A stretch of 64,000 nt of DNA, taken from contig CAWFQK010000002.1 in NCBI GenBank assembly GCA_963817955.1, positions 800,001 to 864,000 of the forward strand. The letters run 5' to 3'. Positions 6,703 through 29,298 of this stretch are shown piece by piece (within the stretch, counting starts at the first letter, position 1; each line of letters opens with the position of its first letter). Source of the DNA: an uncultured Gemmatimonadaceae bacterium (GTDB lineage Bacteria > Gemmatimonadota > Gemmatimonadetes > Gemmatimonadales > Gemmatimonadaceae). A program made the position numbers and the translations under genes. The notes below the pieces were generated by a model. That model saw nothing but the letters and a program-made list of their open reading frames with translations, searched no databases and had not been told where the DNA came from.

Positions 6703-7220
6703 GCGAAGGCCTGGCATCCTGGATGCCTGTCATCCTGAGCGCAGCGAAGGATCTCTGTGACCGATAGAACAGCTTTTGAACGCAGAGGTCGCAGAGAAAC
6801 TGCAGGAGAACTGCAGGAGAACTGCAAAAGAATACTGCAAAAGAGAACTGGAACAAAGGAAACTGCAAAGAGAGAACTGTAAGCGTACGGAAGAGGGAAG
6901 CGCGTATTGGTGGAATGAACTGTGGATGCCGAGCCCACACTCATTCCGCTTATATCGTTACTGATTCCGATCTGGGCGATACCATCGGAGCGTCACGACG
7001 GCATCAGCCAAGACATCCAGGCGAGACAATCATTCATGGTCCTCTGTAGTTCTCTTGCAGTTCTCTGCAGTTCTCCTGCAGTTTCTCTGCGACCTCTGCG
7101 TTCAAAAGCTGTTCTATCGGTCACAGAGATCCTTCGCTGCGCTCAGGATGACAGGCTTTCGCTCAGGATGACAGGCTTTCGCCCAGGATGACAGCTGCGC
7201 TCAGGATGACAGGCCTTCGC
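6703..7220. mobile_element. Family A palindromic element (REPIN/MITE-like), copy 1
   Basis: Perfect 92-bp inverted repeat 6725-6816 / 7065-7156; GAGAACTGCA-type microrepeats; core ~6880-7042 shared with copies 2-4; ~20-bp tandem CGCTCAGGATGACAGGCTTT units at 7140-7220. Confidence 0.85.
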
Positions 7221-7237
7221 TGTAGTTCAACCGTCTG

Positions 7238-8881
7238 TTAGCGGGTGACCGCCTCGGGCGTTGCCGGGAGCGGCAGGTGCAACGGCCTGTGGAGGAAGAA
7301 GCCCTGGACGAGGTGCACGCCAAGCGCCTTCACGGCCTCGAACTCCTCCGAGCGCTCGACGCCCTCGGCAATGACCTTGGCGCCATGATCGTTCGCGAAC
7401 CTCACCATCGTCTGCACGAGATTCTGTTTGATGAAATTCGTGTCGATGGCGTTGATGAGCGAGATATCGAGCTTGATGAAGTCCGGCTCCAGATTGGCAA
7501 TCGACCCCAGGCCGGCGTAGCCGCTGCCCGCGTCGTCCACGGCGAACCGAAAACCGCGCTCGCGGAAGATCATCAGCCGCTCGCGGAATTTGGGATAATC
7601 CTTGATCGCCGTCCGTTCGGTAATCTCGATGACGACGCGCTCGGGCTGCTTCACTTCATCTTCGTTGAACGCCGGATCACTGAAGTCGTGCGGGTCGACG
7701 TTCAGAAAGAGCAGCTCGTTCGGGCGCAATCGCGTGTCCATGCCTTCGATCGCGCGGGCGCGGCACAACCGGCTCAACTCCCATACGAGATCCGCCTCGG
7801 CCGCAACGTCAAACATTACTTCGGGACTGCGCAGACTGCGCATGACGCCGCGCGCCAGCGCTTCGTACCCGAAGATCTCGCGCGTTTCCGTGACGACGAT
7901 CGGGTGATAGTCCACGTACACGCCGCGATCGCGCAGACTGGAGCGCAAGTCCGCCACCCGCCGCGCACGCTCGCGCTCTTCGATCGATCGTGACGCGTTG
8001 GCTGCTTCGCGAATGCCGCGATAGATGAGACGTTCGACGCGGATCTTGGGATTGTAGTAGACGTGCGCCCGCCCCACGTAGATATCGAACAATGCGGCGA
8101 TGTCTTCGCCGTGCTGCGCCTCGATGCGCCCGCCCACATGTCGCTGCAGACGCGCCACCATTTCGGTGATCTCACTCTCCGTGGCGGCGGCCACGCCGGC
8201 CGCCGGCACGTGGAAGAAGATGAAATCGTCGTCGTTGGTGAAGCTCACCATGACCCGCGACGTGCTCAGTGCCGTATCGTCGAGAAACTCGCGCACCGCT
8301 GCCGCAGTCGTCTCGAGCACGGCGTCCAACTTTTCCCACCCGTAGATCTCCTCGATCTTCGAGTACCGCACGAAGTTCAGATAGAGCACGACGAGCTCGC
8401 CGCGCTCTTTGAACAGGTTCCGCGAACGCTCGATCATCACGGGCAGCGTCGGCAGACCGGTGAGCGAATCGTGGAGCATCTGCTCGTACTCCACACGGTC
8501 CACGTGATCGGCGGTCACTGGGGTCTGTGCCGGCGGTTGTCCGCGCCCGACCGCCGCGCGCACGCGTTGCGCGATCTCATCGCCCTCAGCGGGACACCGG
8601 TACCATTCCTCCGCTCTGAGCTCCACGGCACGGCGCCGCACGGTGTCGTCGGCGCATCCGACGATCACGGGAGTGCCACAGGCGTGCGCCCGCTCGATGA
8701 CGTCTCGCAGCAGCGACGGATCATCCGAAACGACGAGAACCGCACGCACACCGGCGCGAGTGCCGGTCACGTGCGCCAGATCGGCCGGGGCGACACGCTC
8801 AAGGCGCCATCCCTCCAGCTGTGCCATTGCTTCGTCGATCCCGGGCTGATCGGAATCCGTGAGCAGAATGGTCTCGCTCAC
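7238..8881 (-). CDS. EAL-domain c-di-GMP phosphodiesterase with degenerate receiver-like and degenerate GGDEF regions
   Basis: HDSLTGLP, FTNDDDF in the GGDEF position, YEALAR, EITE, AVDDAGSGY, IKLD, IAEGVE, VQGF. Confidence 0.9.
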   Translation of the reverse strand: MSETILLTDSDQPGIDEAMAQLEGWRLERVAPADLAHVTGTRAGVRAVLVVSDDPSLLRDVIERAHACGTPVIVGCADDTVRRRAVELRAEEWYRCPAEGDEIAQRVRAAVGRGQPPAQTPVTADHVDRVEYEQMLHDSLTGLPTLPVMIERSRNLFKERGELVVLYLNFVRYSKIEEIYGWEKLDAVLETTAAAVREFLDDTALSTSRVMVSFTNDDDFIFFHVPAAGVAAATESEITEMVARLQRHVGGRIEAQHGEDIAALFDIYVGRAHVYYNPKIRVERLIYRGIREAANASRSIEERERARRVADLRSSLRDRGVYVDYHPIVVTETREIFGYEALARGVMRSLRSPEVMFDVAAEADLVWELSRLCRARAIEGMDTRLRPNELLFLNVDPHDFSDPAFNEDEVKQPERVVIEITERTAIKDYPKFRERLMIFRERGFRFAVDDAGSGYAGLGSIANLEPDFIKLDISLINAIDTNFIKQNLVQTMVRFANDHGAKVIAEGVERSEEFEAVKALGVHLVQGFFLHRPLHLPLPATPEAVTR

Positions 8882-8900
8882 GCGAATCTCACTGGCGGGG

Positions 8901-9302
8901 TCACGAGGCCACGGCGCGCTGCATCGCGAGATTCCGCTCCACCGCCCTGGATAAGGTGGGCAGATCGAATGGCTTCTCGACGTAATCGTCGGCGCCGAAC
9001 TGCAGCGCCTCGCGCTTGTCCTGCCAGTCGTCCAGTGCCGTCACCATGATGATGCGCACCGTACGGCCGAGGGTGGGATGCTGTTTCATCACACGGCAGA
9101 CCTCCCAGCCGTCGCGGCCCGGCATCATCACGTCGAGCAACACGAGCACCGGTCGCACCGTCTCGAACAGCGCGAGCGCTTCGTCGCCACTGTGCGCCAC
9201 CGTAACGGGATAGCCGCGGAGTTCGAGATATTGGCGGATGATCTCGGCGTTGTCGTAGTTGTCATCGACCACCAGAATTGGAGGTTTCGCTACAGGAGTC
9301 AT
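8901..9302 (-). CDS. Single-domain response regulator
   Basis: ILVVDD, LLDVMMPGRDG, IIMVTA, GADDYVEKPF. Confidence 0.92.
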   Translation of the reverse strand: MTPVAKPPILVVDDNYDNAEIIRQYLELRGYPVTVAHSGDEALALFETVRPVLVLLDVMMPGRDGWEVCRVMKQHPTLGRTVRIIMVTALDDWQDKREALQFGADDYVEKPFDLPTLSRAVERNLAMQRAVAS

Positions 9303-9384
9303 GGAACTGCCTGGTGTGCTCCGTTGATGCGGTGCACGCCCCAGCGCACACCATCGCATCTATAATGGGCAAATCACAAGCCAT

Positions 9385-10182
9385 CTACCGCTGCCCGAAG
9401 GCATAGGAGACACCCAGCGCGTACGCCGTGCCGCTCGGGCCACCCAATCCCTTGGCCCTCGTCGCGCCAAATTCGACACCTGCGGTGGCGCCCAGAGCGT
9501 TCGTGATGCCAACATCGGCGCCAATCGCCGCACGGAACAGCCCGCTCGTCTTGCTGCCACCAGAAAAGAAAACGTAGGTGGGCGTGGCATACACAGACAA
9601 CCCATGCGTGCCACCAAACGATTGGCGCCAACCCAATGCGGCCCCGATCGGAATCTCGGTGCTCGTCGAGCTGGAGTCGAAGGTGATCGTCCCGCTGGTT
9701 GCGCCTGCCGGAATCGCGCATCCTACCGTTGATGCAGTGCAGAGTATGGTCGTGTGGGATGTCCGCGCACTGCCGCCACCAATCCCGGCAAATCCCGCGA
9801 ACCCAAAGTTGCTCGTTGATCTACCGAAGGGAATGGCGACGCGGGCGCCATATACGCCGCGCGAACTGCCGATTCCGGTCTGATACCCTGCTCCACCACT
9901 GAGCTGAAATCGTCCGCCTCCGGGGGTATACGACACGGCCGCCGCATACACGGAGCCGTTCGCGCCACCGCCGACATTCAAGGCACCTACACTACCGGGT
10001 GTCGCCCAGGCATTCTGGAGAACGGGCAATCCGCTGATCTGGGCGTCGGCAGAGGCACCTGAGATTGCCCCGGCAGCAGCGGCGACGAGAGTTGCCCGCA
10101 GCAACCGGTGACCGAATGACTGAGATCGTCCGGCGCCTTGCAGGTAAGAAGAGAGGTGGTAGAGGTGATAGAGCTGGTACAT
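9385..10182 (-). CDS. Hypothetical exported / outer-membrane beta-barrel-like protein (start uncertain)
   Basis: Signal-like LLRATLVAAAAGAISGASADAQ, alternating beta-strand pattern, C-terminal ALGVSYAF. Confidence 0.6.
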   Translation of the reverse strand: MYQLYHLYHLSSYLQGAGRSQSFGHRLLRATLVAAAAGAISGASADAQISGLPVLQNAWATPGSVGALNVGGGANGSVYAAAVSYTPGGGRFQLSGGAGYQTGIGSSRGVYGARVAIPFGRSTSNFGFAGFAGIGGGSARTSHTTILCTASTVGCAIPAGATSGTITFDSSSTSTEIPIGAALGWRQSFGGTHGLSVYATPTYVFFSGGSKTSGLFRAAIGADVGITNALGATAGVEFGATRAKGLGGPSGTAYALGVSYAFGQR

Positions 10183-10354
10183 GGTTTCAGATCCGTGATC
10201 TCGGGTGAAACGCCGGAGCGCAAGCATCGTGCAAACCGAGCCGCTGAATCCACCAGTTCGCTGAGCCGTAAGTGGGCAGAGTACTACCTGACCCTTGACC
10301 AGCCCCGAAAAGGGCCACAACGTGATGGCCCCCACCATTTCTCCGAGGACACCT

Positions 10355-11128
10355 ATGCCGCAGGCACCTGTTCTGGCACTGCTAGCGGCTGCCGTCCTGT
10401 CCATGGGTGGCCGCCCCGCGGGAGCGCAGGCTCCGGGTCAGCCTGCGCGACCGAGCGCCGCGCTCGTCGGTTGGATACGCGATTCGCTCGGCGCGCCGAT
10501 CGATCGCGCTGATATTGGTGTGGAATTGAACAATGTGTGGGCGCGTACCGATTCGACCGGCCGGTTCAGACTGGGCAACCTCGTGCCCGGGAAGACGACG
10601 ATCATTGTGCGGCGGTTCGGTTTTGAGCCGCAGCACTTCGACTTCGAGCTGCACGCGTCGAGTGAGGATAGCGTCGCCGTGACGATGAACGCCTACGCAC
10701 ATACGCTTCCGGGCGTACGCACGGAAGAGGCGGTCACGCGCCAGCAGCAGGCACTGCAAGATTTCGATCGCCGTCGCGCGCACGGTGGGGGCCTGTTCGT
10801 GACGCGCGCCGATATCGAGCGGCATCAAACGAGCGTGTTGAGCGAGACGGTCCGCGAACTGCCCGGCGTGCGAATCGTACGCGGGGGTCGTTCGCGCTCG
10901 GGATTGCGCTTCGATTCGTCGAACTCGCGAGCCCACGATTGTCCGCCGCTATACTGGCTCGACGGACGTCACGTCACCGGAGTCGACATCGACGACTTTC
11001 CCGCCTGGGACGTGGAAGCGATCGAACTGTACACCGGCCCAGCGTCTACCCCAGCGCAGTTCTCGCTAGGGAACGTCGTGACATGCGGGACCGTGGTGAT
11101 CTGGACCCGGGTGCCGGGGAAGCCGTAA
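10355..11128 (+). CDS. Carboxypeptidase-regulatory-like domain plus TonB-receptor plug-like domain protein (no beta-barrel)
   Basis: RBS GAGGA; GWIRDSLGAPI, ARTDSTGRF, VRRFGF, PLYWLDG, DVEAIELY, CGTVVIWTR. Confidence 0.8.
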   Translation: MPQAPVLALLAAAVLSMGGRPAGAQAPGQPARPSAALVGWIRDSLGAPIDRADIGVELNNVWARTDSTGRFRLGNLVPGKTTIIVRRFGFEPQHFDFELHASSEDSVAVTMNAYAHTLPGVRTEEAVTRQQQALQDFDRRRAHGGGLFVTRADIERHQTSVLSETVRELPGVRIVRGGRSRSGLRFDSSNSRAHDCPPLYWLDGRHVTGVDIDDFPAWDVEAIELYTGPASTPAQFSLGNVVTCGTVVIWTRVPGKP

Positions 11129-11132
11129 GGGG

Positions 11133-12627
11133 GGGACACGGGTGTGAGACACGGGACACGGGACACGGGACAGGGGAAACTCACAACGCACAACTCACAA
11201 CTGGACACTCGGAACTCGCCGACCGGCGGGCCGACCGCGACGGAGCAGCCAGCGACATCCCGCCGGTCAACACCTGGAGTCCAATCCGATCGCCCAGGTC
11301 CTTCGCTCAGGAGGACAGGCCGTCGCGGGTAGCGTAATCAGTGGTGAGTTGTCAGTGGTGAGTTGTCAGTTGTCAGTATACAGGTCATGCGCACCAGGGC
11401 GCCTGGCTCGCAGGCCACTATCGCCGGTCGGCGAGGTTCGGGTGTCCAGTTGTGAGTCGTGAGTTGTGAGTTGTAAAAACGGACCCCGCGCGACCACCCT
11501 GCACAATTCTATTTCGCTGTGAACGCGACGCCCGACTCAATGTCACCGAACCTTCGCGGAGGGCAATAGGGCTGCCCGATCAATTCCTTCCCTTTCGCTC
11601 GGAATTGTCGCATCACGATGCAGTCTGGCGAGGTGGACGTCTCGGAATGTGGGCGATTGGTAAGCGGAATGAAGCCACCGCGCCCGATCCTGGCCCGCCG
11701 CGGGTGGCCGTTACTCGGCCGCGGCCAAGAGTAACGCTGCCGCGCGCGGTTCCCGAACGCGCCGCGGCCTTGATCCGTCATGTCGCGCTATCGATCTGCG
11801 TACCGCGCTATCGGTCCGCCATGGCGCGCTATAGATCTGCGTGCCGCGCTGTCGATCCGCATGCCGCGCGCAGGCCGCAGAACTCCGCGAGATGAAGTCG
11901 GCGTACCGCGCGAGCGGCGGCCGTGCCAATCCAAGTCGGTGGGGTAGGCGCAAGGACAGCCGGTGTTGCCGCGCGCGCCGGTCGGATGCCGCCGAAATTT
12001 GAGCCGTACCGCGCATGGCCCCCCACGCGCAAACGCTGTCCCCCGGCGCCCCGCGCCGGATGCGACCACGCCGCGAGTTGCGTCCGGCGCTCCGCCGTCG
12101 GAGGCCAGAAGCCGCGGCGAGAGCACGTTGCGCCGCGCCCGGGAGCCTGACGCCACGGCCGGTCGGTGCACCGGGGATTGGCCCCCGGGTGTTGACCGGC
12201 GGGATGTCGCTGGCTGCTCCATAGCGTTCGGCCCACCGGTCGGCGAGTTCCGCGTTTCCAGTGATGAGTGATGCGTTGTTAAAAACTCACAACTCACGAC
12301 TCACAATTGGGCACCCGAACCTCGCCGACCGGCGATAGTGGCCTGCGAGCCAGGCACCCTGGTGCGCATGACCCGTATACTGACAACTCACAACTCACCA
12401 CTGACAACTCACCACTGATTACGCTGCCCGCGACGGCCTGTCCTCCTGAGCGAAGGACCTGGGAGATCGGATTGGACTCTGGGTATTGACCGACTGGATG
12501 TCGCTGGCTGCTCCGTACCGGTCGGCCCACCGGTCGGCGAGTTCCGAGTGTCCAGTTGTGAGTTGTGCGTTGTGAGTGTCCCGTGTCCCGTGTCCCGTGT
12601 CCCAGGACCGTGTCTCGTGTCCCAGGA
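11133..12627. mobile_element. Family B composite non-coding island: two inverted ~295-bp units (11178-11472 and 12284-12577) capped by GACACGG heptamers, plus a partial third unit at 12175-12278
   Basis: 12284-12577 is the near-identical reverse complement of 11178-11472; each unit has its own ~33-bp terminal IR with CACAACT heptamer tandems. Confidence 0.85.
11763..11870. repeat. Degenerate 20-21 bp tandem repeat (CGCGCTATCGATCYGCRTRC-like), about 5 units
   Basis: CGCGCT(A/G) recurs at 11784, 11804, 11825 and 11845, with degenerate units at 11763 and 11865. Confidence 0.75.
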
Positions 12628-12642
12628 CAGTTGCCCCACGAC

Positions 12643-12671
12643 AAAAAAAAGAGCCCGCCGAAGCGGGCTCT
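12643..12671 (-). terminator. Intrinsic terminator of the SusC/SusD operon
   Basis: agagcccgc-cgaa-gcgggctct hairpin with A8 tract on + strand. Confidence 0.9.
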
Positions 12672-12697
12672 CTTTATTCACAACCTACTAACGTCGA

Positions 12698-13546
12698 TCA
12701 CATCCCGGCGGGCAGCATCGGGAAGTTGTCCTGCATCCATTTCACACCGGCCGTGGTGTTCGCCGCGGCAAGACTGCCAGTGACTGACGGCGGGAAGATG
12801 AATGCCGTCAACATGCTACCGGCGATCGAGTAGCCGCCGAGTGCGCTCTGCGACACCGAGGCGGGCGTGGCGCCGATTGGCGCTAGAGCCGTCGCAGACA
12901 CCGTGGTGGAACCATTGGGAGTCGCCGCAAACGTCAGCGAGCCAGTGGCGAGGAGCTTGTACGCCGAGCTAGTGCCGTACGCAACACCCGTAAAGAGCGG
13001 TGAGCCAGTCGCGGTGGCGAGCGGGTACACGTCAGCGCTGGTGATGGTCGGCGCAGCGTTGATGGCACGCACGGCGATCTGCGTGCTCGACCCGGCAGCC
13101 GAGCGATCGTCTGTGAGGACGATCAGACCCTGCTTCGGCGACGCACCGGTGCGCGAGTAGCCGGCGTGGATGATGGTGTAGTACACGCCCGCCTGGAACG
13201 TGAGCGTCGTGTCGACGAACGTCTGCGAGACGACGGTGATATCCGCTTCGTTTGCCGTGCCCGCGTCAACACGCGGATCCACGGAGAAGATGCGAATGTG
13301 ACGCGCACCAGCGGCAACTGGCTGATACGCCGAGATGTCACGGAAGGCGAGTTGGCCAAAGTACGGGGAGCCGGCCACCTGATCGACGAACCTGAAGTCC
13401 GTCTTGTTCGTGTCCGGAATGGCATTGATATAGCGGACGGAGGCAACCGCTCCGGGGCTGATCGTTGTCGGACCAGTATCGCCGCTTGTGCACGCCGCCA
13501 ATACCGAGCCGGCGACGGCCAGCAACGCGAGTCGCTGCAGTTTCAT
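12698..13546 (-). CDS. DUF4397-like domain lipoprotein
   Basis: RBS GGAG; lipobox LAAC; two repeats VRYINAIPD and VRAINAAP; YYTII. Confidence 0.8.
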   Translation of the reverse strand: MKLQRLALLAVAGSVLAACTSGDTGPTTISPGAVASVRYINAIPDTNKTDFRFVDQVAGSPYFGQLAFRDISAYQPVAAGARHIRIFSVDPRVDAGTANEADITVVSQTFVDTTLTFQAGVYYTIIHAGYSRTGASPKQGLIVLTDDRSAAGSSTQIAVRAINAAPTITSADVYPLATATGSPLFTGVAYGTSSAYKLLATGSLTFAATPNGSTTVSATALAPIGATPASVSQSALGGYSIAGSMLTAFIFPPSVTGSLAAANTTAGVKWMQDNFPMLPAGM

Positions 13547-13594
13547 ACTAGTGAACTCCACGAGAGAGTGATTCGAGAAGCGTAAAGACGTTTA

Positions 13595-14074
13595 TCACCA
13601 CGGCACCTTCGAGGTGGCGCCAATAGGAGTGCGTGACGTATCCGACGTCTGCTCTGTTGCACTACCGGTGAGCGTCCGAGTCAGCACGAACGCCGTGACA
13701 CCGGCGATCACTACTCCGGCAAACAACGCGGTCTTTCCGCGCGAGAACTGGCGTTGGCGCGAAGTCGCCACGTCGTTCACCGGAATGCTGACTCGTTCAC
13801 CTCCCCAGTAAGCCGTGCCACCACGGATCGTGGTGACCTGGCTGACGCCGAGGACGTACTGATCATTCGTGACCTGTTGCAGCGTTCCTTCGATCGTCAG
13901 GACGCCCGGGCCGAGCTGGTTACCCAGCGCTGCCCGGCCGGCATCGGTCAGATCCAACTCTACCGTCTGCCCGACCTCGGGGCGCGCTTCCGCAATCGGC
14001 TGATACGTGTAACAGCCAACCTGCAGCAGCATTAACGCCCCCAGAACCGCACCCGACGACCGACGCTGATTCAT
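13595..14074 (-). CDS. Hypothetical lipoprotein/membrane protein
   Basis: Start overlaps the SusD stop (TGATG); QVGCYTYQP, C-terminal hydrophobic helix. Confidence 0.75.
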   Translation of the reverse strand: MNQRRSSGAVLGALMLLQVGCYTYQPIAEARPEVGQTVELDLTDAGRAALGNQLGPGVLTIEGTLQQVTNDQYVLGVSQVTTIRGGTAYWGGERVSIPVNDVATSRQRQFSRGKTALFAGVVIAGVTAFVLTRTLTGSATEQTSDTSRTPIGATSKVPW

Positions 14075-15744
14075 CAGAATCCGTACGTGCCCTTTGCTGC
14101 GGCAGACTGCCCGCCGACGCCACCGAGGTTGTAGAAAGCCTGGGCACGCGTATCCATTTCCTGATACGGTACCGGCCACTCGAGCGCCGTGCCTTCCGCC
14201 AGGTCACCCCAGCCGCGGGCATCGAAGTACCACTGCGCGTAACCGGTGTACGCCGTCTCCATTCGCTTCTCCCACTTCATCGTCTCCATGATGGCACCGC
14301 ACACGGTGACGTTCCCAGCGCTCGTCGGAACGCGCGGCACACACGCACTACCAGTGTTGCCACCGTCCGCCTGGGCGAGGACTGCAGGCAAGCCTGCCTT
14401 CTGGCGAGACTTGTTGATCAGCGCCGCGGCGGTAGCGAAATCACCCTTTCGGATGGAGCCCTCGGCCGCGAGCATGTCGTTCTCCACCTTGGAGAACTCG
14501 ATCCACGGACCGACGCCGTTGTTGTCGTAAATCGCTTTGAAGCGGAAGAAATCGTAGTACGACGATCCCCACGGGTCACCCGGCGGGTCTGCGCTCGTAC
14601 GGTTCCGCATGTACGGGTACGCCGTGTAAGTCCAGGTCGACGGCGAGGCCGCCTGCTGAGCAGTACGCGTTTCGCCGCTTGGGAAGCGCTTGTCCGGCGT
14701 CTTGATGAGGAACATGGGACGAGCCCCGAGCGGCTGCGCCACCCAGTTTGTGTAGCCGCCCGATGTGTCGGCCATGCCGAAGATCATCGGCGTTATCTCG
14801 CTCCATCCCGAGGCGTTCGACGCAAACATCTGCGAGCCGAGCCAGCTCAGCGACCAGCCGGCCGAGCTGTTGATCGTCACCGCGAGATCCGTCTGGATGC
14901 CGGCGGTCGCGTCGGCGATCACTGAGGTCCAATCCACCGCGGCGCGTTCGGCAGGCGTGCGCGCCACCCCGGCGCGGAAACGCGCCTTGAACGAATGAAT
15001 CAGCGCGACGAACTGCGCCTGGCTGTACGTGCCGCTCGCCAGATTGATGTAATTGGCCGGGAGCGGGAAGCCCGCGGTCGCCTTGGCGTCCGAGGCGAGC
15101 GCGAGCGCCGTGTCCAACGACGCGAGCGCTGCCTTCATGACGTCTCCGTGTGCGCTCAGCAGCGGAATTGCGTCACCCGGCGTGGCCGGCGTGGTGATCG
15201 CGGCTGAGTCGTACGTCATCGCAAGGTAGCCAAGCGAAAGGCCGTTCTCGAAGAATGCGAACGAGCGTGCGCGCTGGTCCTGCGCCGGAAGCAGCGTTGC
15301 GTCGGAAATGTTGCCGGTGGGGCTGCCAAGGTGGAGGCCCGCACCAGTCAGCTTGTCCAGCGCCTGTACGTAGTTTGCCGAGTACCGCGCCTGCTGCGCC
15401 ATCTTGCTGAAGTCGCGGTTGTCTTCGGCATAGGTGAAGTTGTTGCGGCTGTTGTCAACGAACCCGCGTGGCAGCGCCTCGCGGAGCGCCATGCCGAAGT
15501 TCGCCACCGTGGCGTAGTTCTCGAAAGCGACTGCTTGGAGCTGCGGATCCAGGGCCGACGAGGTTCCAAACAGACCCCCGTGGATCTGTGCGAAGCCTGT
15601 CGCGATCAGCTGATCCAGCACGGCCGGCGTGGAATAGGAGCGCGCGATGTCCGGAGAGTTGTTGTTCGGAACATTGAGCGAATCCTTGCACGCGGTCGAT
15701 GCTAGCGCAGCTGCGCAAGCAAGCCCGGTTACCAACTTTCTCAT
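14074..15744 (-). CDS. RagB/SusD-like nutrient uptake outer-membrane lipoprotein
   Basis: RBS AGAGGA; lipobox STAC; ENDMLAAEG..AAALINKSRQKAGL; WEKRME..YFDARGWG; WPVPYQE; follows SusC. Confidence 0.88.
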   Translation of the reverse strand: MRKLVTGLACAAALASTACKDSLNVPNNNSPDIARSYSTPAVLDQLIATGFAQIHGGLFGTSSALDPQLQAVAFENYATVANFGMALREALPRGFVDNSRNNFTYAEDNRDFSKMAQQARYSANYVQALDKLTGAGLHLGSPTGNISDATLLPAQDQRARSFAFFENGLSLGYLAMTYDSAAITTPATPGDAIPLLSAHGDVMKAALASLDTALALASDAKATAGFPLPANYINLASGTYSQAQFVALIHSFKARFRAGVARTPAERAAVDWTSVIADATAGIQTDLAVTINSSAGWSLSWLGSQMFASNASGWSEITPMIFGMADTSGGYTNWVAQPLGARPMFLIKTPDKRFPSGETRTAQQAASPSTWTYTAYPYMRNRTSADPPGDPWGSSYYDFFRFKAIYDNNGVGPWIEFSKVENDMLAAEGSIRKGDFATAAALINKSRQKAGLPAVLAQADGGNTGSACVPRVPTSAGNVTVCGAIMETMKWEKRMETAYTGYAQWYFDARGWGDLAEGTALEWPVPYQEMDTRAQAFYNLGGVGGQSAAAKGTYGF

Positions 15745-15826
15745 GTGATTTCCTCTGCTATGAGATCCCGGTCGTCGTGCCGGATCTCGATGACTCGAGA
15801 GTCCGGCCCGCGCGACTAGGGGATGG

Positions 15827-18800: not shown

Positions 18801-19237
18801 ATGTCCTTGTCGTCCATGTGCGCCACCGTGAAGGGCAGCTTCTTCTGCTCCGTTCCCGCGCTCACGCCTGTGACGACGATTGCCTCCAGGCGGTTCACGT
18901 CCTGCTTGAGGACGAAGTCCGCCGTTTGCGATCCGGCGTGAACGGTGATCGGCTTCGTCTGCGGAACGAAACCGAACGACCGCGAACGCAGCACGACCTG
19001 CTGGCCGGTCACGCGAGCCGCCGGAATGGTGATGGTGTACACGCCTTGGGCGTTCGAACCAACCGAGATGTTCATCTCGGTGATGTAGATGTTCGCGCCC
19101 TCAAGGGGCTGGCCGAAATCCGATGTCACCTTACCGGTGATCACCGCATTCTGCGCCTGGGCTCGTGCCGTAGGCACGGAAAGCAATACGCCGAGCATTG
19201 CGCCGGCTATCGCTCGAGCACGGGTCATAATGGTCAT
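15827..19237 (-). CDS. SusC/RagA family TonB-linked outer-membrane transporter
   Basis: ITGKVT..GQPLEGANI, IQGKVPG, NPLYIVDG, DINPQDIESVEIVKGAAASSLYGSRAGNGVIQITTK, LKTWTKYTGFDPEV, terminal F. Confidence 0.95.
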   Translation of the reverse strand: MTIMTRARAIAGAMLGVLLSVPTARAQAQNAVITGKVTSDFGQPLEGANIYITEMNISVGSNAQGVYTITIPAARVTGQQVVLRSRSFGFVPQTKPITVHAGSQTADFVLKQDVNRLEAIVVTGVSAGTEQKKLPFTVAHMDDKDMPVPGSDPLQAIQGKVPGATIAQTSGRPGASPAVLLRGPQSINASGRSQNPLYIVDGIEIVGSLPDINPQDIESVEIVKGAAASSLYGSRAGNGVIQITTKNGKNAGDGIHFSARVESGAGNIEHGYPYAQDQFMTMTPDGQNFCVNQGGTGLVATCQIAINFGLETKRVNELGGVFALSPANFARDFGVSSAATKVLLRGLYSNQTWPTTYDPIAQATTSAPSLNNTVDASGRVGGTNFFASFNNMSQQNAIRFMDGYKRNSVRVNLDQSVGSDWSFGLRTYYAASVDNGAAEQDGGGVFFTITRSPAGVNLLGKDPVSGLQYIRSNPLAQGAQNSNPMYLAANEISRNNNSRILSDFTTKWSPVSWGSLEGNVSFDRAQNLYLYQYDKGYRTTAVNSGTNNGYISNSQNLTSAYNGDLTGMANHQFGSLTTRLTGRYIYEQQDGWSTGAGGGALAAPGLVTLNAVSDNTTIGISSSTSSVRSIGMMSELNLEYKDRYILSGLVRRDGSSLFGSDNRWANYTRESAAWIVSEEPWWLFGAIDQFKLRASYGTAGGRPSFSAQYETFSIGSGGALSANQLGNKNLRPETVGETELGTDIEVLNRYGLTVNYAVSNAKDQILPVPPPAATGFSTQWQNAGTLQNKTLEASLNIPVLSARNGSWSMRFNYDRNRSVITQLNMPPFPYGTSYQNAGNIFYAAQGERYGNFYGRAFAKSCGDLPAAFAAQCGGSGSQFQKNNDGFIVWTGGKSLDQGITSNLWQSGLVSCLVGGAAVSTQGDVNCKAKGGTVNAPWGTSVNWGTPITIRDSSGSANTHILLGNALPNFRLSNTQTFNYKRLFLYGLFDGNFGRHVWNMGRQWSLGDFQLAETDMAGKGLADAKPIGYYWRTGPQENSGIGGLYDVLGPNNNTVEDASFVKLRELNLSYNIGPVRHTGDWSVSLVGRNLKTWTKYTGFDPEVGYGGGTSGSAIVNALDAYTFPPMRQFTVSLSSKF

Positions 19238-19763
19238 CTCGCTCTCTGAAGATGAAAAATGAAGCCTCACTGACCTTCACCTGCCACACGCGTACGACTG
19301 CACCTGCAACCTTCAATTCCAAACAACTGACGTGCTCGTACTACATCGGGTCACGAATGAGCTGCCACACTTTCGGCAGCGCGCCAGCCGACGCGCTGTC
19401 ACACCGCTCAGTGTGGGCGCATCGGCGAAAAAGAACAGGAGATTGTGAACAGACATCGCCCCTGGGGGTTTGGGGCATGCGCAAGAAACCTTCAGCACGG
19501 AGGAACGACCATTCAGGGGATACGTGCGTCTAACTCACGATACGTGATGAACGGTCACATTTGGGACGATCGGCCGGCCCCTGGATGGTTCGAGCCGGAA
19601 TAGGGGGTCCGGAGAACGTAGGTCATGGAACGGCGCGGTGCAAGAGCGCCGGCCCTGTCTGCCCGTGTCGCTTGCGCCGGTTCCCGCCCTCGCCCAGCTT
19701 GACCGTCGGTCTGGATGCCGCTCCAGAGCGCATTCGTATGCGCGCTCGCTCATTGGAAACCAA

Positions 19764-20207
19764 ATGACTCAGCACGACGTTCGGCGCCTCGCACTCCTCG
19801 CACTCCTCTCCGCCATCGGCGGTCCGGGAGCGTGCGCCAGCGCTGGCGCAGCCGCATCGTCCGCGTCGTCCCCGCGCCATGGCGATCGCTCCATGATCAC
19901 CGCCGAGCAGATGCGGGACTTGCCGGTGTCCAGCCTGTACGACGTGGTGCAACGTCTCCACCCGGAATGGTTCACGCAACGCCAGGCAGCCAAGGTCGCC
20001 AAGGCCCCGGGTGCATCAACGAGCGACAACAGCATTCAGGTCTACCTGGGCAGGCAGCACGTGGGGAATACCGACGTGCTCAAGCAAATGTCGCCGAATG
20101 GCACCGCGTCATTGAAGTACTACTCGGCATCTGAAGCGCAGGGCCGATTCGGCAACGGCAATCTGAATGGCGCAATCCAGGTGCTCATGGTTGGCGCGAA
20201 ACCGTAA
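19764..20207 (+). CDS. Small lipoprotein resembling a stand-alone TonB-receptor plug domain
   Basis: GAC lipobox, ITAEQM..SLYDVVQRLHPEWF, YYSASEAQGRFG..GAIQV. Confidence 0.7.
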   Translation: MTQHDVRRLALLALLSAIGGPGACASAGAAASSASSPRHGDRSMITAEQMRDLPVSSLYDVVQRLHPEWFTQRQAAKVAKAPGASTSDNSIQVYLGRQHVGNTDVLKQMSPNGTASLKYYSASEAQGRFGNGNLNGAIQVLMVGAKP

Positions 20208-20273
20208 CCGGCGCCACCGTTAGATGGATACGCACGCTTCCCACGGGGGCGTGCGTTTCTTGTGTTGGGATGC

Positions 20274-20302
20274 AAAAGGGCCGGCGCAGTGCCGGCCCTT
20301 TT
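20274..20302. terminator. Bidirectional intrinsic terminator
   Basis: aaaagggccggc-gcagt-gccggccctttt between convergent genes. Confidence 0.9.
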
Positions 20303-20324
20303 CACCTTGCCCATACCAGTTCGC

Positions 20325-20573
20325 CTATGCCGCGGACGCCTTCTCCGTGACGACGCGGACGGTGTTGTCCACGACCTGGAGAAAGCCGCCGTCAACGTTG
20401 AACTGCTGTGCGCTCTGCGTGCCGAGGCGCAGCACGCCCTTGCCCAGCAGCGTCATCATCGGCGCATGGCCGGTGAGGATGCCCACTTCGCCGTCGAACG
20501 CCGGAGCGACGACCGAATCCGTCGTACCTTCGTACAGCACCGCTTCCGGCGAGATCACCGTGACTTTGAGCAC
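20325..20573 (-). CDS. atpC: ATP synthase F1 epsilon subunit (82 aa, beta-sandwich domain only)
   Basis: VISPE, GEVGILTGHAPMMTLLGKG, VDGGFLQV. Confidence 0.93.
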   Translation of the reverse strand: MLKVTVISPEAVLYEGTTDSVVAPAFDGEVGILTGHAPMMTLLGKGVLRLGTQSAQQFNVDGGFLQVVDNTVRVVTEKASAA

Positions 20574-20584
20574 GAAGCCTCCGC

Positions 20585-22873
<2,289 letters not shown>

Positions 22874-22881
<8 letters not shown>

Positions 22882-24463
22882 TGCGAGGCGTAGCTCGTGT
22901 CGCCGTCTGCTTGAATGCCTCGATGCCACGTTTGAGATCGGCCTCGAGCTCCTTCGTCAGCACCTTGCCAGTGCGGAGGCCATCGCCCACCTGCGGGTAG
23001 CTCTTCGCCATGAACTCGTGGAAACCCGTCTCCCACGCGCGCACGCCCGCCACCGGTACATCGTCGATGAAGCCGTTGGTCACGGCGTAGATGATCATGA
23101 TCTGCTGCTCGACCGGCATTGGCTGGTACTGGCCCTGCTTGAGCACCTCCACCGTGCGCGCGCCGCGATCGAGCTGGCGGCGTGTGGCAGCGTCCAGATC
23201 CGAGGCGAACGCCGAGAATGCTTCGAGCTCGCGGAACTGCGCGAGGTCGAGACGCAGACGACCGGCCACCGTCTTCATCGCCTTGATCTGCGCGGAACCA
23301 CCGACGCGCGATACCGAAATGCCCGCGTTGATCGCGGGACGAACGCCGGCGAAGAACAGGTCGGACTCGAGGAAGATCTGGCCGTCGGTGATCGAGATGA
23401 CGTTCGTCGGGATGTACGCCGAAACGTCGCCTGCCTGTGTTTCAATGATTGGCAGCGCCGTGAGCGAGCCGCCCGGCTTGAGGATGTTCTTCCCATCCAC
23501 CACGCTCGGGTCTTCGCTCAGCTTGGCGGCGCGCTCGAGCAGGCGCGAGTGGAGATAGAACACGTCGCCCGGGAACGCCTCGCGTCCCGGAGGCCGACGG
23601 AGCACGAGCGAGAGCTGGCGATACGCGGCGGCCTGCTTCGACAGGTCGTCGTAGACGCACAACGTCGGCTTGCCCTCATTGTACATGAAGTACTCGGCCA
23701 TCGAGCAACCCGAGTAGGGTGCGATGTACTGCATTGGAGCCGGATCGGACGCCGACGCGACGACGACGATCGTGTACTCCATCGCGCCCGATTGCTTGAG
23801 GCGCTCAACGACGGAGGCAACGGTGGACGCCTTCTGGCCGATGGCGACGTAGACGCAGATGACGCCCTGGCCCTTCTGGTTGATGATCGTGTCGACCGCC
23901 ACGGCGGTCTTGCCGATGCCGCGGTCGCCGATGATCAGTTCGCGCTGTCCGCGACCGATCGGGATCATGGAATCAATGGCCTTGATGCCCGTCTGCAGCG
24001 GTTCCTTCACCGGCTGGCGGACGATGATACCCGGCGCGCCCGATTCCACCTTGCGGGTGGTGGTGGCGTTGATTTCGCCGGCACCATCGATGGGAAGGCC
24101 CAGCGCATCCACGACCCGGCCGATGAGTTCCGGACCGACCGGCACCTCGAGCACGCGACTGGTGCGGCGAACCTCGTCGCCTTCCTTGAGCTGCAAGTAG
24201 TCACCGAGAACGACGGAGCCGATGTTGTCCTCTTCGAGGTTCAACGCGAGCGCCGTAACCTTATTCCCCGTCTCGGACGACGTGATTTCGAGCATCTCGC
24301 CGGCCATGGCCTTGAGGAGGCCGTAGATGCGGGCAATGCCGTCTTTGACTTCGAGAACGGTGCCTACCTCTTCGACATCGAGCTCGTGGAGGTCGGCGGC
24401 TTCGATCTCGCGAAGGAGAATGTCCTTGATCTCGCCGGGGCGGAGTGTGGTGTCAGTTGCCAT
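22874..24463 (-). CDS. atpA: ATP synthase F1 alpha subunit
   Basis: [40 protein letters not shown]. Confidence 0.99.
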
Positions 24464-24615
24464 CGGTAATAGAAGGAAAGCGGACAGCGTGAAGGGTGTC
24501 TTACCAGCTTGTGAAAAATATCACAAGGAGGGCACCCGCGGCAAGCCGCGCCATTCCCTCCCTGTATGCAACGGATCGGTGGTGCTCGTCGGCCTCGCGG
24601 CCCCATCTTATCCGC

Positions 24616-25011
24616 ATGGCAGGGAGCATGCGGGACCTTAAAATCTGGCAGGAATCCGTGGCCCTCGCCGCCGACGTTGTCCGTTCGGCCCGCCAGAGCG
24701 CCCGGCGTGAGACCAAGGTCATCTCCGACCAGATCATGCTCAGCGCCCTCGCCGCCGCCACCACCATCGCGGACGCCTATGGACGATACACCAACCAGGA
24801 ACAGCGGCAACTGTACCGTGCTGCCAAACGTGAACTCATGCGCTTGGAGACGCAACTCGCTGTCGCGCGCCAAGCCGACCTCATCTCTTCGGCCACCCAC
24901 GCCGACCTCACAAGCCGCATCCAGGGCGTGAGCCGACTGCTGGGCGGGTACCTGGTCTACCTCGAGCGGCAGTTGAGTCAGGAAGCTGAAGCTACTCCGG
25001 GGCGCGGGTAG
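24616..25011 (+). CDS. Four-helix-bundle protein (23S-IVS protein / Avd-like family), divergent
   Basis: RDLKIWQESVAL, DQIMLSA..TIADAYGR (canonical NIAEG), LETQLAVA, SRLLGG. Confidence 0.8.
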   Translation: MAGSMRDLKIWQESVALAADVVRSARQSARRETKVISDQIMLSALAAATTIADAYGRYTNQEQRQLYRAAKRELMRLETQLAVARQADLISSATHADLTSRIQGVSRLLGGYLVYLERQLSQEAEATPGRG

Positions 25012-25036
25012 AGGATCAGGCTGCGGGTAGGGATTG

Positions 25037-25861
25037 TCAGTGCCCCCTACTCCTCCCGTGCCCTTTCACGAACCGCTCGATCAAGTCGACGGTGCGGAGT
25101 CTGGTGAGAGACGTCGGCTTTGTGCCGACGACGCGCATGGTGCTGCTCGACAAATGCGAAGACGACGCGAAACCGAGCACGTTGGCGACGTCGCGCAGAT
25201 CGTAACCGGGGTTCTTCGCCAACTCCGCCGCAGCGACGATGCGAACCAGATCGATGATCCGCTTCAGGTTCGGCGCGCCACCCGCGGCGAACGAGCGGCT
25301 GAGATGTTCGCGCGTCACCTTCAACGCCTGCGCCAGCGCCGACGTCCGCACCGGTCGACCAGCGTGCGACACGATGAACTGCCATGCGTCGTGTTGGAGC
25401 CGTGTGTCGAGTGCCAACGCCTTTGGCGGCGCGTTGAGCGCACGAGCGAAGCGGGTGGAGAAACTGAGGTGCATCACGATATCACGCGCCGCACTATCAT
25501 CCACGCTATCCACGAGCACATCAGCGAATTCGCACCGTGCACACTGTGCGAGCGCCGGTCCTTCGGCGGCGTGCAGCGAAACAAGCCCGAAAAAGGGAAT
25601 GCTCGGGAAATCGCGGGCGCGCGACGCCACGCGCCAGGTGTCTTCCTGCGCACCGCCCACGTCCACCACGGCCGCGTCGACCAGGTTGTCCTTGAACGCC
25701 GCCTCGAAGTCATCGTGTGTGCGCGTCAGCAGCAGGCGCGCCCGTCGCCGCGGGAACGCGGCTTTCATCAGGGTCCGCGCGCGTTCGCGCTGCGCATAGA
25801 CCACAATGGCCGGTGCGCCCGCAGCCAGCGCGGCAGGTGCCGGTGCGCTGGTTTCTGTCAT
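25037..25861 (-). CDS. AraC-type HTH regulator with receiver-like N-terminal domain
   Basis: LAQALKVTREHLSRSF and LRDVANVLGFASSSHLS; ATGA overlap with the NUDIX gene. Confidence 0.85.
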   Translation of the reverse strand: MTETSAPAPAALAAGAPAIVVYAQRERARTLMKAAFPRRRARLLLTRTHDDFEAAFKDNLVDAAVVDVGGAQEDTWRVASRARDFPSIPFFGLVSLHAAEGPALAQCARCEFADVLVDSVDDSAARDIVMHLSFSTRFARALNAPPKALALDTRLQHDAWQFIVSHAGRPVRTSALAQALKVTREHLSRSFAAGGAPNLKRIIDLVRIVAAAELAKNPGYDLRDVANVLGFASSSHLSSSTMRVVGTKPTSLTRLRTVDLIERFVKGHGRSRGH

Positions 25862-26304
25862 GCTGACGCCGACGATGCAACGATCATCTCTTGCGCCCGG
25901 CGAAGCACCTCGCGCGCATTGACATAGGAGATCAGCGTCTTCGCCTCTTCAAAAGGCGTCCAGCGACAAGCGGTGATTCCTTCAGCGTGTTGCGGTGATG
26001 TCGACGACTCGACGGTCTCCATCAAAAAGAAGTAGCACACCTTGTGGATGAGTTGACCGCGAAAGCGAAAGAACCAGTCGATCGTCTCGATCGAGCCACG
26101 CACGACCAGTCCAGACAAGCCCGTTTCCTCGGCGACCTCACGGAGGGCAGCCGCTTCCGGCGCCTCACCGTCTTCGAGATGGCCTTTTGGAAAGCCCCAG
26201 TTCTGGTAGCTGTCGCGAATCAATAAGAAGAGCGGCTGCCCGCTGTCGAGGCGAAACACGACACCCCCTGCCGATGTCTCGGCGCGTGCGGTGCCGCGAG
26301 TCAT
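25858..26304 (-). CDS. NUDIX hydrolase (Ap4A hydrolase-like)
   Basis: SAGGVVF, WGFPKGHLEDGEAPEAAALREVAEETG. Confidence 0.93.
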   Translation of the reverse strand: MTRGTARAETSAGGVVFRLDSGQPLFLLIRDSYQNWGFPKGHLEDGEAPEAAALREVAEETGLSGLVVRGSIETIDWFFRFRGQLIHKVCYFFLMETVESSTSPQHAEGITACRWTPFEEAKTLISYVNAREVLRRAQEMIVASSASA

Positions 26305-27062
26305 CAGACAGCCTGCTCCGCCGGTTCCGGCTCGATCGTTGGTTTGCCTTCAATGAACTGCCGCACGATAGGGTCGTGCGTGTGCTGGATCTCGCTGACC
26401 GTGCCGACCTGCCGCACGCGGCCCTGATAGAGCATGGCGATGCGCGTGCCGACGGTGTATGCGCTCCGCATGTCGTGCGTGATGACGATGCCCGTCACGC
26501 CGAGCCGGTCGCGCATGCGCACCATGAGCTGATCGATGACGGCACTCGTCACCGGATCGAGTCCAGTGGTCGGCTCATCGTAGAGGATGTACTTGGGGCG
26601 CAACGCGACCGCACGGGCAATGCCGACGCGTTTCCGCATGCCCCCAGACAGCTCGGCCGGAAAGCGATTCTCGACGTTCGGCAAGTCGACGAGATCGAGC
26701 GCTTCGTGTACCCGGGTCTCGATTTCTTTCTCGGTGAGCTCCTGCTGCTTGCGGAGGCCCATGGCCACGTTCTCACCGATGGTGAACGAGTCGAAGAGCG
26801 CCGCGAACTGAAAGACGTAGCCGATGCGGGCGCGGAGCTTGTACAGATCGCGGCGCGACAGCTTGGGCACCTCGAAATCATCGACAATCACCTGGCCTGC
26901 ATCGGGTTCGAGCAAGCCGACGATGTGCTTGATGGCGACAGACTTGCCGCTGCCCGAGTAGCCGATGATGACCATCGTCTCCCCTTCGACGACGTCGAGG
27001 CTGAACCCCTCGAGCACGCTCTTGGGTCCGAATGCTTTATAGATGTCGATGAGGCGGATCAT
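26304..27062 (-). CDS. mlaF: ABC ATP-binding protein, MlaF/Mkl/Ttg2A family
   Basis: GYSGSGKS, FQFAALFDS, PAELSGGMRKRV, YDEPTTGLDP, ITHD. Confidence 0.88.
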   Translation of the reverse strand: MIRLIDIYKAFGPKSVLEGFSLDVVEGETMVIIGYSGSGKSVAIKHIVGLLEPDAGQVIVDDFEVPKLSRRDLYKLRARIGYVFQFAALFDSFTIGENVAMGLRKQQELTEKEIETRVHEALDLVDLPNVENRFPAELSGGMRKRVGIARAVALRPKYILYDEPTTGLDPVTSAVIDQLMVRMRDRLGVTGIVITHDMRSAYTVGTRIAMLYQGRVRQVGTVSEIQHTHDPIVRQFIEGKPTIEPEPAEQAV

Positions 27063-27224
27063 GGGCGCGAAACGGGATTCGGGACATCAGGATCGACGCG
27101 AGTCACGCGACACGCGACGTCCCCGTTTCAGAAATGTGATCTTGAACGGCGGTCGTGGCTAGGGCGATGGTCACGGTGGGTATACGAAAGAAGAGTCTTC
27201 GGGGAAATGAGTGGGCGAATTGCT

Positions 27225-27630
27225 TGTCATCCTGAGCGACGGCCTGTCATTCTGAGCGAAGCGAAGGATCTCGGTGACCAGTTGAACAGCTTTTAACGCA
27301 GAGGTCGCAGAGCACTGCAAGAGGACGCAGAGAACTGCAGAGAACTATAAGGACCGTGAAGGATTCTCTCGCCTGGAAGTCTTGGCTGACGCCCTCGTGA
27401 CGCTCGGATGGTATCGCCCAGGTCGGGATCATCAACGATATAGGCGGAGTGATTGTGGACTCGGCAATCACGGTTCATTCCACCTACACCCGCTTCCCTC
27501 TGCAGTTCTCTTGCAGTCCTCCTGCAGTTCTCCTGCAGTTCTCTGCGTCCTCTGCGTTAATAGCTGTTCAACTGGTCACCGAGATCCTTCGCTTCGCTCA
27601 GAATGACAGGCCGTCGCTCAGGATGACAGC
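27225..27630. mobile_element. Family A palindromic element, copy 2 (core inverted relative to copy 1)
   Basis: ~80-bp IR 27225-27304 / 27549-27628 with 1 mismatch; core ~27351-27500. Confidence 0.85.
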
Positions 27631-27663
27631 CGCTTCGCCCACCTATTTCCGCGAGGACCCCCG

Positions 27664-28868: not shown

Positions 28869-28941
<73 letters not shown>

Positions 28942-29048
28942 TGGCGTGGCAGTTGGGTGTTGGGCGCCGCGTCGAATTACCTCGGAAGCTTGCCGGCACG
29001 GGTCGTGGGCGAGACCGTCGCCTTCCGAGTTCCGGTTTGACATGAGTT

Positions 29049-29121: not shown

Positions 29122-29126
29122 TTGTT

Positions 29127-29200: not shown

Positions 29201-29202
29201 TT

Positions 29203-29230: not shown

Positions 29231-29298
29231 GTGGGGAGTGTTCGCCGATCAGTTTCCGAATGTTGCTGGTTTCAGCAGCGAAGAACAGCTCGCTGACC

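Follow-up and report, generated by a model that had tools for sequence, protein, structure and literature searches.

A family of long REP-type inverted dimers with mirrored arms in a Gemmatimonadaceae genome

Family A copies and their mirrored arm differences

The analyzed stretch of DNA (64,000 nucleotides (nt), hereafter the window; G+C content 62.9%) comes from an uncultured Gemmatimonadaceae bacterium (contig CAWFQK010000002.1, positions 800,001–864,000) and carries four copies of family A, a non-coding, multi-copy element in which two inverted arms flank a directional core. The copies c1 (6703–7215), c2 (27195–27658), c3 (38202–38690), and c4 (52815–53185) are all intergenic. An original prediction, made from the sequence, had proposed that both arms of each copy carry the same private mutations and that one arm is probably templated from the other; the range given for it, 6725–27628, holds c1 and c2 only, with c3 and c4 lying further downstream. 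The copies were located by a 25-mer quoted in that prediction, by two core patterns, each present in all four copies, and by a repeat finder. With up to three mismatches, the 25-mer (CATCCTGAGCGCAGCGAAGGATCTC) has six matches in the window, at 6731 (+) and 7126 (−), 27248 (+) and 27581 (−), and 52821 (+) and 53155 (−), and none in 100 shuffles.

From the outside inward, an arm of family A is composed of tandem half-sites (18–20 nt each, TGTCATCCTGAGCG followed by approximately 6 nt; zero to three per copy), a complete hairpin motif H (TGTCATCCTGAGCGNAGCGAAGGATC), and an inner arm (GTGACC....AACAGCTTTTAACGCAGAGGTCGCAGAG). An array of approximately 10-nt repeats containing CTGCAG, expanded in c3 to a period of 23 nt (units of 10 and 13 nt), leads to a core of approximately 170 nt, after which the arm recurs as its reverse complement. 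Copies c1 and c3 have the core on the plus strand, c2 and c4 on the minus strand, and the arms are named 5′-side and 3′-side relative to the core strand, rather than left and right. The spacer between the two H motifs is unusually long (330–400 nt), the arms are 200–291 nt apart, and whole elements measure 370–490 nt. Family A is a head-to-head dimer of the repetitive extragenic palindromic (REP) type, built on the TGTC-tagged hairpin H and provided with an unusually long structured spacer. Folded as single-stranded DNA (ssDNA), c1 reaches −196.2 kcal/mol versus −81 ± 5 kcal/mol for shuffled sequences (z = −22), so that one long hairpin is possible. The features of the four copies, and of the two copies of an unrelated element used as a control (family B), are as follows.

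6703..6724 (+), c1: degenerate outer half-site (GCGAAGGCCTGGCATCCTGGAT) outside the 5′-side arm, resembling the 20-nt half-site unit of the other side
6725..6816 (+), c1: 5′-side arm, 92 nt, 100% complementary; H at 6728–6753, then GTGACC..AACAGCTTTTGAACGCAGAGGTCGCAGAG and the first 10-mers
6817..6876 (+), c1: array of approximately 10-nt ACTGCA(A/G)AGA repeats from arm to core
6877..7046 (+), c1: directional core (CTGTAAGCGTACGG ... GGTGGAATGAAC ... GGCGATACCATCGGAGCGTCACGA ... GGTCCTC), 12 private substitutions in 173 columns
7065..7156 (−), c1: 3′-side arm, exact reverse complement of 6725–6816 (0/92 differences, 248 nt between the arms); H at 7128–7153
7157..7215 (−), c1: three further tandem truncated half-sites (TGTCATCCTGAGCG plus approximately 6 nt, period 18–20 nt), matches at 7160, 7180, and 7198
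27195..27241 (+), c2: outer imperfect palindromic flank with one half-site, mirrored at 27612–27658 (repeat finder, 132 nt, 90%)
27242..27330 (+), c2: 3′-side arm; H at 27245–27270 with CATTCT and loop A; perfect over GGCCTGTCATTCTGAGCG...AACAGCT, 9/89 differences from the other arm
27348..27516 (−), c2: core, from the core patterns and the alignment
27523..27611 (−), c2: 5′-side arm; H at 27583–27608
27612..27658 (−), c2: outer palindromic flank, partner of 27195–27241 (132-nt, 90% inverted repeat)
38202..38268 (+), c3: 5′-side arm, inner part only, H absent on that side (67 nt, 97%)
38256..38367 (+), c3: expanded array with a 23-nt period (10 + 13 nt), a repeat-finder family
38368..38539 (+), c3: core, with 1 nt deleted in comparison with c1, c2, and c4
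38557..38690 (−), c3: 3′-side arm with complete H (approximately 38638–38664) and one more half-site (38671–38684)
52815..52905 (+), c4: 3′-side arm; H at 52818–52843 carries GAGCAAAGCG
52911..53080 (−), c4: core, 4 private substitutions, nearest to the four-copy consensus
53093..53185 (−), c4: 5′-side arm; H at 53157–53182; strongly diverged (40 nt, 85%; 30/94 differences), shares GAGCAAAGCG
11133..11477 (+), B1: control family B, unrelated inverted-repeat element with heptamer arrays
12279..12623 (−), B2: control family B, inverted copy of B1, 317/345 identical

The arms of the four copies are complementary to different degrees. The repeat finder pairs the arms of c1 (6725–6816 with 7065–7156) over 92 nt at 100%, with no wobble pair; those of c2 (27195–27326 with 27527–27658) over 132 nt at 90%, with a perfect stretch of 51 nt inside; those of c3 (38202–38268 with 38557–38623) over 67 nt at 97%, the outer part of the 5′-side arm including H being missing; and those of c4 (52815–52854 with 53146–53185) over 40 nt at 85%. 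In a MAFFT alignment of the eight arms, the two arms of one copy differ at 0/92 positions in c1, 9/89 in c2, and 30/94 in c4, and the arms of c1 differ from those of c2 at 11–16/92.

Within the first 75 columns of this alignment, c1 and c2 are distinguished by eight mirrored differences, at which both arms of each copy agree: columns 10, 19, 33, 40, 41, and 43, a G insertion at column 55, and an A insertion at column 74, both insertions being in c1. Three further differences (columns 52, 66, and 75) are unmirrored, and all of them are transversions in c2. The identity tracts are contiguous and have sharp ends (92 nt in c1, 51 nt in c2). The arm strings quoted in the original prediction are indeed present in place, including the 92/92 identity in c1, and the mirroring it described holds, with a count of eight differences and two single-base indels instead of about seven differences including one indel. 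Its observation on copy 4 is also correct in that both arms contain GAGCAAAGCG, although these arms otherwise match poorly.

Columns of the alignment were then classified for each pair of copies (a quartet of arms) as mirrored, when one copy has a single state in its two arms that neither arm of the other copy shows, or side-specific, when same-side arms agree across the copies. Mirrored columns number 9 for c1/c2, 8 for c1/c3, 11 for c1/c4, 2 for c2/c3, and 4 for c2/c4, with no side-specific column in any of these five quartets; the c3/c4 quartet has 1 mirrored and 2 side-specific columns. Many more columns are singletons, mainly in the 5′-side arms of c3, c4, and c2. The grouping of same-side arms across loci, which the original prediction had named as the contrary pattern, is therefore limited to two columns of a single quartet. 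The method is able to detect that pattern, since the control quartet B1/B2 yielded 12 side-specific and 0 mirrored columns, together with 9 other columns. Fisher's exact test of 9:0 (c1/c2) versus 0:12 (family B) gives p of approximately 3e-6 by our arithmetic. Judged against family B, the quartet counts agree with homogenization, in the sense that the arms of one locus share derived states absent from the homologous arms elsewhere. A candidate ancestral side-specific signature of the inner arm, overwritten in c1 and c3, was downgraded in view of the 0 side-specific sites for c2/c4.

Family B itself (11133–12623) comprises two inverted 345-nt copies (92% identical) around approximately 800 nt. 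Heptamer arrays (GGGACAC, ACTCACA) and a separate pair of 51-nt inverted arms belong to either copy, and the arms, which differ at 17–20/63 sites, keep side-specific differences. A shorter TGTC-type hairpin, TGTCCTCCTGAGCGAAGGACC, is found in it at 11304 (−) and 12439 (+). Short inverted repeats made of GGGACAC/GAGACAC heptamer arrays are also located at 2172–2297 and 56615–56767.

An artefact of assembly or polishing, in which read misplacement or consensus collapse would have equalized the arms, is highly improbable. Identical 92-nt inverted repeats 248 nt apart do invite misplacement of short reads, but c2 mirrors different variants alongside genuine unmirrored differences, diverged arms are retained by c4 and family B in the same assembly, and shared loop bases are observed too in the H dimers of unrelated assemblies described below.

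The cores differ pairwise at 18–29/173 columns. Private substitutions, judged (like all variants called private here) among the four copies of the window only, are most numerous in c1 (12) and least numerous in c4 (4). The most diverged core is thus accompanied by perfect arms, and the least diverged core by the worst ones. If the core changes arose after insertion, approximately 12.8 arm-to-arm differences would be expected in c1 by our arithmetic, and none is seen.

A protein-coding core was rejected, as the 89-aa open reading frames (ORFs) at 6922–7191 and 38413–38682 have a G+C content at third codon positions of 0.51–0.54, compared to 0.7–0.8 in real genes, and the 1-nt deletion in c3 shifts the frame. 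RNAalifold applied to the four core sequences found 1 and 0 pairs changed on both sides for the two strands. None of the four copies matches an Rfam model at the gathering score, and E-value thresholds produced only generic long-hairpin models (miRNA precursors) and weak chance matches. No sigma-70-like promoter was detected in any of the four copies, and full-text literature searches for the motif strings gave only unrelated primer matches among those listed, or none. The core also holds a 10-bp imperfect inverted repeat, GGTGGAATGA ... TCATTCCGCC (6909–6950, with equivalents in c2–c4), which may be an old nested hairpin element, its halves resembling the CATTCC/GGAATG stem variant of H.

Most family A copies are situated near the 3′ ends of genes, and c1 and c3 lie between convergent genes. 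The neighbors of c1 are a Kdo-transferase-like gene and a convergent EAL-domain gene, whereas c2 is flanked by an ABC ATPase gene and a sigma-70 gene, being 3′ of the latter and 5′ of the next gene. Copy c3 follows an unassigned ORF and precedes a convergent chemoreceptor gene, and c4 sits between two terminator-like hairpins, one of them at 53201–53220. A tRNA gene (37016–37089) is located just upstream of the ORF preceding c3, and a cluster of five tRNA genes occupies 28869–29591. Elsewhere in the window, the 23S and 5S rRNA genes (44935–48168, minus strand) are accompanied by no 16S gene in the 15.8 kb upstream (48169–64000), which suggests that the rRNA genes are unlinked in this genome. 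For an ORF at 24496–25011 (+), beside ATP synthase genes, Pfam gives a match to PF05635, the ‘23S rRNA-intervening sequence protein’ family (E = 2.6e-18).

The outer hairpin H in other genomes

The elements of H follow in the order TGTC, ATCCT, GA, GC, GNA, GC, GA, AGGAT, and C. A search for the pattern CATYCTGAGCNNAGCGAAGGATC in the genomes of 185,579 species identified at least 127 loci with a near-identical motif of 23–26 nt, in records whose titles name many phyla. The matches listed include Acidobacteriota, Chloroflexota, Gemmatimonadota, groups of Planctomycetes, Verrucomicrobiota, members of Bacteroidota, Bacillota (Lachnospiraceae, Clostridia), Omnitrophota, Saccharibacteria, Patescibacteria, Nitrospirales, several Pseudomonadota, and others. 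H, and with it the outer arm, occurs in many phyla and is not confined to family A. When the four copies were compared by blastn with these loci, only H and the half-site arrays were matched, the inner arm and the core remaining unmatched (70 alignments of at least 40 nt, of which the best 60 were inspected and all fell in the outer arms). A blastn search of c1 against the PLSDB plasmids gave no match.

Like the arms of family A, most H sites elsewhere come in inverted pairs. An inverted partner within 450 nt was found for 90 of the 145 sites, resulting in 75 distinct dimers with gaps of mostly 10–100 nt. The tags face outward: CAT is preceded by TGT in 45 and by CGT in 6 of 54 left arms, and by TGT in 43 and CGT in 5 of the 54 right arms. 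The H sites of the window read TGTCAT in c1, c2, c3, and the left arm of c4, and TTTCAT in the right arm of c4.

The test of the structure of H used the 54 partner arms, whose sequence is free of constraint by the search pattern. The local fold consists of 5 bp, a tandem G·A, 2 bp, and a G-N-A loop, and 96.6% of cells are paired, compared to at most 54.6% in slid controls. Six of the seven Watson–Crick pairs change on both sides (41 cells), a level reached in 0/500 shuffles. Of the nine stem positions, the first two are A5–T25 (standard in 45/51 distinct rows) and T6–A24 (50/51). The loop measures 3 nt, or 5 nt without counting the closing C–G pair. The 3′ tail has an invariant C26 followed by the consensus TC, and reads CTC or CCC, not CCA. 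The nearest-neighbor folding energy of H alone is unremarkable (−2.7 kcal/mol, matched by 93/200 shuffles); the case for the hairpin is made by covariation. The loop base N is equal in both arms in 33 of the 54 dimers, versus 16.6 ± 3.1 upon shuffling, and 0/10,000 shuffles reached 33.

Outside the complete hairpin, and always in one and the same orientation, truncated half-sites (TGTCATCCTGAGC plus a short spacer) form arrays with a period of 18–25 nt. Such arrays adjoin 14/140 H sites elsewhere (e.g., L028, L042, L091, L097, and L115), the counts for the downstream side and for the opposite orientation being 0 and 3; in the window they are found at 7157–7215, 27222–27241, 27612–27631, and 38668–38688. 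They possibly result from slippage or represent scars of repeated events. The palindrome may also run past the H tags into the flanks, as it does for 45 nt in c2 (27195–27241 with 27612–27658). The flanks of 4 of the 54 dimers (L127 and three other loci) are complementary at 14/14 positions, and the mean is 5.33/14 versus 3.87 in shuffled flanks. Target-site duplications were sought at the ends of the 54 dimers, where direct repeats of 2–8 nt were present in 1, 1, 0, 1, 0, and 1 of 54 cases; none was read in the sequence at the ends of c1, c2, and c4.

Proposed arm-to-arm copying and its alternatives

We favor, at roughly even confidence, the reading that the copy-specific changes found in both arms arose when one arm was copied onto the other at the DNA level, whether at the present loci or in the direct progenitors of these copies. 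Such copying could proceed by (i) template switching within one molecule at an extruded hairpin, i.e., quasipalindrome correction, (ii) gene conversion between the inverted arms, or (iii) fill-in of an asymmetric hairpin intermediate. Copying, as opposed to site-by-site compensation, is favored by the mirrored insertions, by perfect tracts that run without a break, and by the fact that copies whose arms have decayed survive. The quartet counts set against family B, the perfect arms of c1 beside its most diverged core, and the loop bases shared by 33 of the 54 H dimers point the same way. Purifying selection for a perfect 92-bp stem is unlikely, because the mismatched arms of c4 (30/94) and family B (17–20/63) persist. 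The architecture, the mirrored sites, the contrast with family B, and the structure and broad occurrence of H are seen directly in the data; a templated origin of the mirroring, as opposed to a selective one, and the enzyme or pathway behind it are inferred.

Compensatory evolution offers another route to the same states: the arms would mutate independently, and variants that restore pairing would be favored for the sake of a long RNA or ssDNA hairpin, as proposed for REPIN spacers. The local covariation of H is a textbook case (96.6% paired, 41 double-changed cells, 0/500 shuffles), and most family A copies are close to the 3′ ends of genes, a position in which an RNA hairpin could play a role. 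For the arms of family A we nevertheless consider this explanation rather unlikely. One mismatch costs a tiny share of −196 kcal/mol, so that selection per site would be very weak, yet c1 contains neither a mismatch nor a G–T pair, and two mirrored single-base insertions are hard to reach site by site. In addition, c4 and family B persist with 15–30% arm mismatch, and the three unmirrored differences between c1 and c2, a small number, are transversions rather than the wobble-compatible transitions.

Equally doubtful in our estimate is an origin of the mirroring without any copying at these loci, in which symmetric masters gave rise to the copies, or core and inner repeats entered pre-existing REP homodimers, the differences between copies then being those of subfamilies or alleles. 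Outer-arm variants do recur as H alleles among the 145 sites (loop C in 59, loop A in 48, GAGCAA in 5, and CATTCT with GGATC in 3), and both homodimers and heterodimers of REPs are known (PMC3733652). Four copies in 64 kb imply a large, barely sampled family, and the 12 private core changes of c1 would fit an unsampled subfamily. However, this explanation moves the question back, as the masters would still need the mirrored G and A insertions of the inner arm (columns 55 and 74). Moreover, the arms travel with the core, because the junction between H and the inner arm, GGATCTC(T/G)GTGACC, is common to c1, c2, and c3; no arm-only element was found in the window, where AACGCAGAGGTCGCAGAG matches just the eight arm positions.

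Several results weigh against arm-to-arm copying. In the maximum-likelihood tree of the eight arms, the arms of c1 are sisters (support 91/94), as are those of c2 (86/91), but the 5′-side arm of c3 groups with the 3′-side arm of c4 (85/86), and the two remaining arms stand alone; the predicted sister pairing of same-locus arms is thus seen in just two of the four copies. The arm variant shared by c3 and c4 points to exchange between elements as well. The inner part of the c2 5′-side arm is nearest to c1 (42/44), compared to 38/43 for its own partner, which points to c2 as a mosaic and to exchange between elements or mosaic ancestry. The core pattern GGCGATACCNTCNGAGCGTCACGA has 0 loci in the genomes of the 185,579 species, which leaves no sister copies to compare. 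Several outer-arm states that look private are recurrent H alleles found across phyla. Homogenization of the arms is not general in the superfamily, because in 20 of the 54 H dimers one arm departs from the other by paired changes that compensate each other inside that arm and leave a mismatch between the arms. Selection on structure clearly acts in the superfamily, six of the seven pairs of the H hairpin being compensatory. Four copies cannot separate copying from selection for pairing or from symmetric progenitors, and neither an enzyme nor an intermediate nor a polarity of copying was observed. The idea of a templated arm is supported in part, by the indels, the tracts, and the decayed copies, and is tempered by the sample of four copies and the recurrent H alleles.

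A more specific form of copying, in which TGTC/CGTC-tagged REP dimers renew through an asymmetric ssDNA hairpin whose shorter 3′ end is filled in from the 5′ arm, is quite improbable in our view. With every round of fill-in, one arm would be rebuilt on the template of the other, so that substitutions and indels alike would appear in both. An aborted fill-in would leave a truncated arm, as in c3, and the tandem half-sites (TGTCATCCTGAGCG plus approximately 6 nt), observed here and at 14/140 H sites of other phyla, would be scars of repeated rounds. If true, arm mirroring would be a direct read-out of the propagation of a widespread repeat class. As a clue to how the elements propagate, the mirroring carries less weight than the original prediction had given it, since homogenization of inverted repeats is a known general process and need not belong to propagation.

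If the arms are indeed re-templated, the elements must extrude as hairpins or cruciforms in vivo, and they would serve as natural reporters for template switches or for conversion over short tracts. The repeat class of H is without a known mobilizing enzyme, so that clues to dimer formation and to the upkeep of symmetry would be useful. On the practical side, a near-identical 23-nt motif at no fewer than 127 loci of many phyla yields spurious small ORFs, and long perfect inverted repeats are a hazard for assembly and annotation.

Comparison with known repeat systems

Miniature inverted-repeat transposable elements (MITEs) are small and non-coding, occur in many copies between genes, and are bounded by inverted repeats with TG at the start and CA at the end. 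Family A shares these features, including the TG...CA inverted termini. In contrast to MITEs, no target-site duplication was found at the ends of H dimers or of c1, c2, and c4, and some outer flanks are themselves inverted. Nor was a parent insertion sequence found; Pfam detected no transposase and no REP-associated tyrosine transposase (RAYT) among the 43 ORFs of the window. In large palindromes, such as those of the human Y chromosome, the plastid inverted repeat, and tufA/tufB in Salmonella, the arms evolve in concert by gene conversion, each arm thereby resembling its partner more than homologues at other sites. Those systems have kilobase arms and operate via homologous recombination, whereas the 92-nt arms of family A are near the lower limit for that route.

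Template switching between the arms of inverted repeats homogenizes the arms, expands repeats, and inverts spacers, according to three reports (PMC7202029, PMC8604942, PMC13100816). The quasipalindrome switch they describe resembles the pattern in family A, in that an imperfect repeat is perfected by arm copying, several bases and indels are changed per event, and expansion can proceed outward. The described cases involve tens of nt and short spacers, whereas the arms of family A are 90–130 nt long and 200–291 nt apart, with neither the event itself nor spacer inversion visible.

The CGTC-tagged REPs (Di Nocera et al., 2013; PMC3733652) are the closest match to H itself. In that paper, the terminal tag is said to be ‘changed to TGTC ... 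in many repeats’, the stems are 8–9 bp long and open with A–T and T–A, the loops measure 4–5 nt, and the unpaired tail has the consensus CCA. Head-to-head dimers predominate, including homodimers and heterodimers, with spacers of 20–100 nt; five phyla are listed, and the paper reports no associated transposase. Among its references is a 1988 review with a title that raises gene conversion as a possible mode of REP sequence evolution. H agrees with this description in the TGTC tag, the A–T then T–A stem start, and the outward-tagged dimers, and differs in the two G·A mismatches within a stem of nine positions, a loop that can be read as a GNA triloop, and the occurrence in many more phyla, while the spacer of family A is far longer and conserved. 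We conclude that H likely belongs to the CGTC/TGTC-tagged REP superfamily, though not in every respect, since its loop length and tail may differ from those described.

As a functional analogue, the REPINs (Bertels and Rainey, 2011; PMC3116915) come closest to family A. In that study, mirrored changes in the hairpin are read as compensatory, and REPIN excision is asymmetric, raising the question of how symmetry is regained. Like family A, the REPINs described there are intergenic and consist of two inverted short hairpin repeats and a spacer, able to adopt a long hairpin or ‘clover’ fold; changes on both sides of the hairpin tend to match, and singlets and truncated remnants occur. They differ in being approximately 70–110 nt long, tagged by GTAG, and served by a cognate RAYT, whereas family A elements are 370–490 nt long and have a TGTC tag, 10-mer arrays, and a core of approximately 170 nt. 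Compensatory changes across REPIN hairpins are already published (PMC3116915), and homogenization of inverted repeats is a known general process; what is new is family A, a distinct family with concerted arms within the REP-type inverted dimers, or REPIN-like elements.

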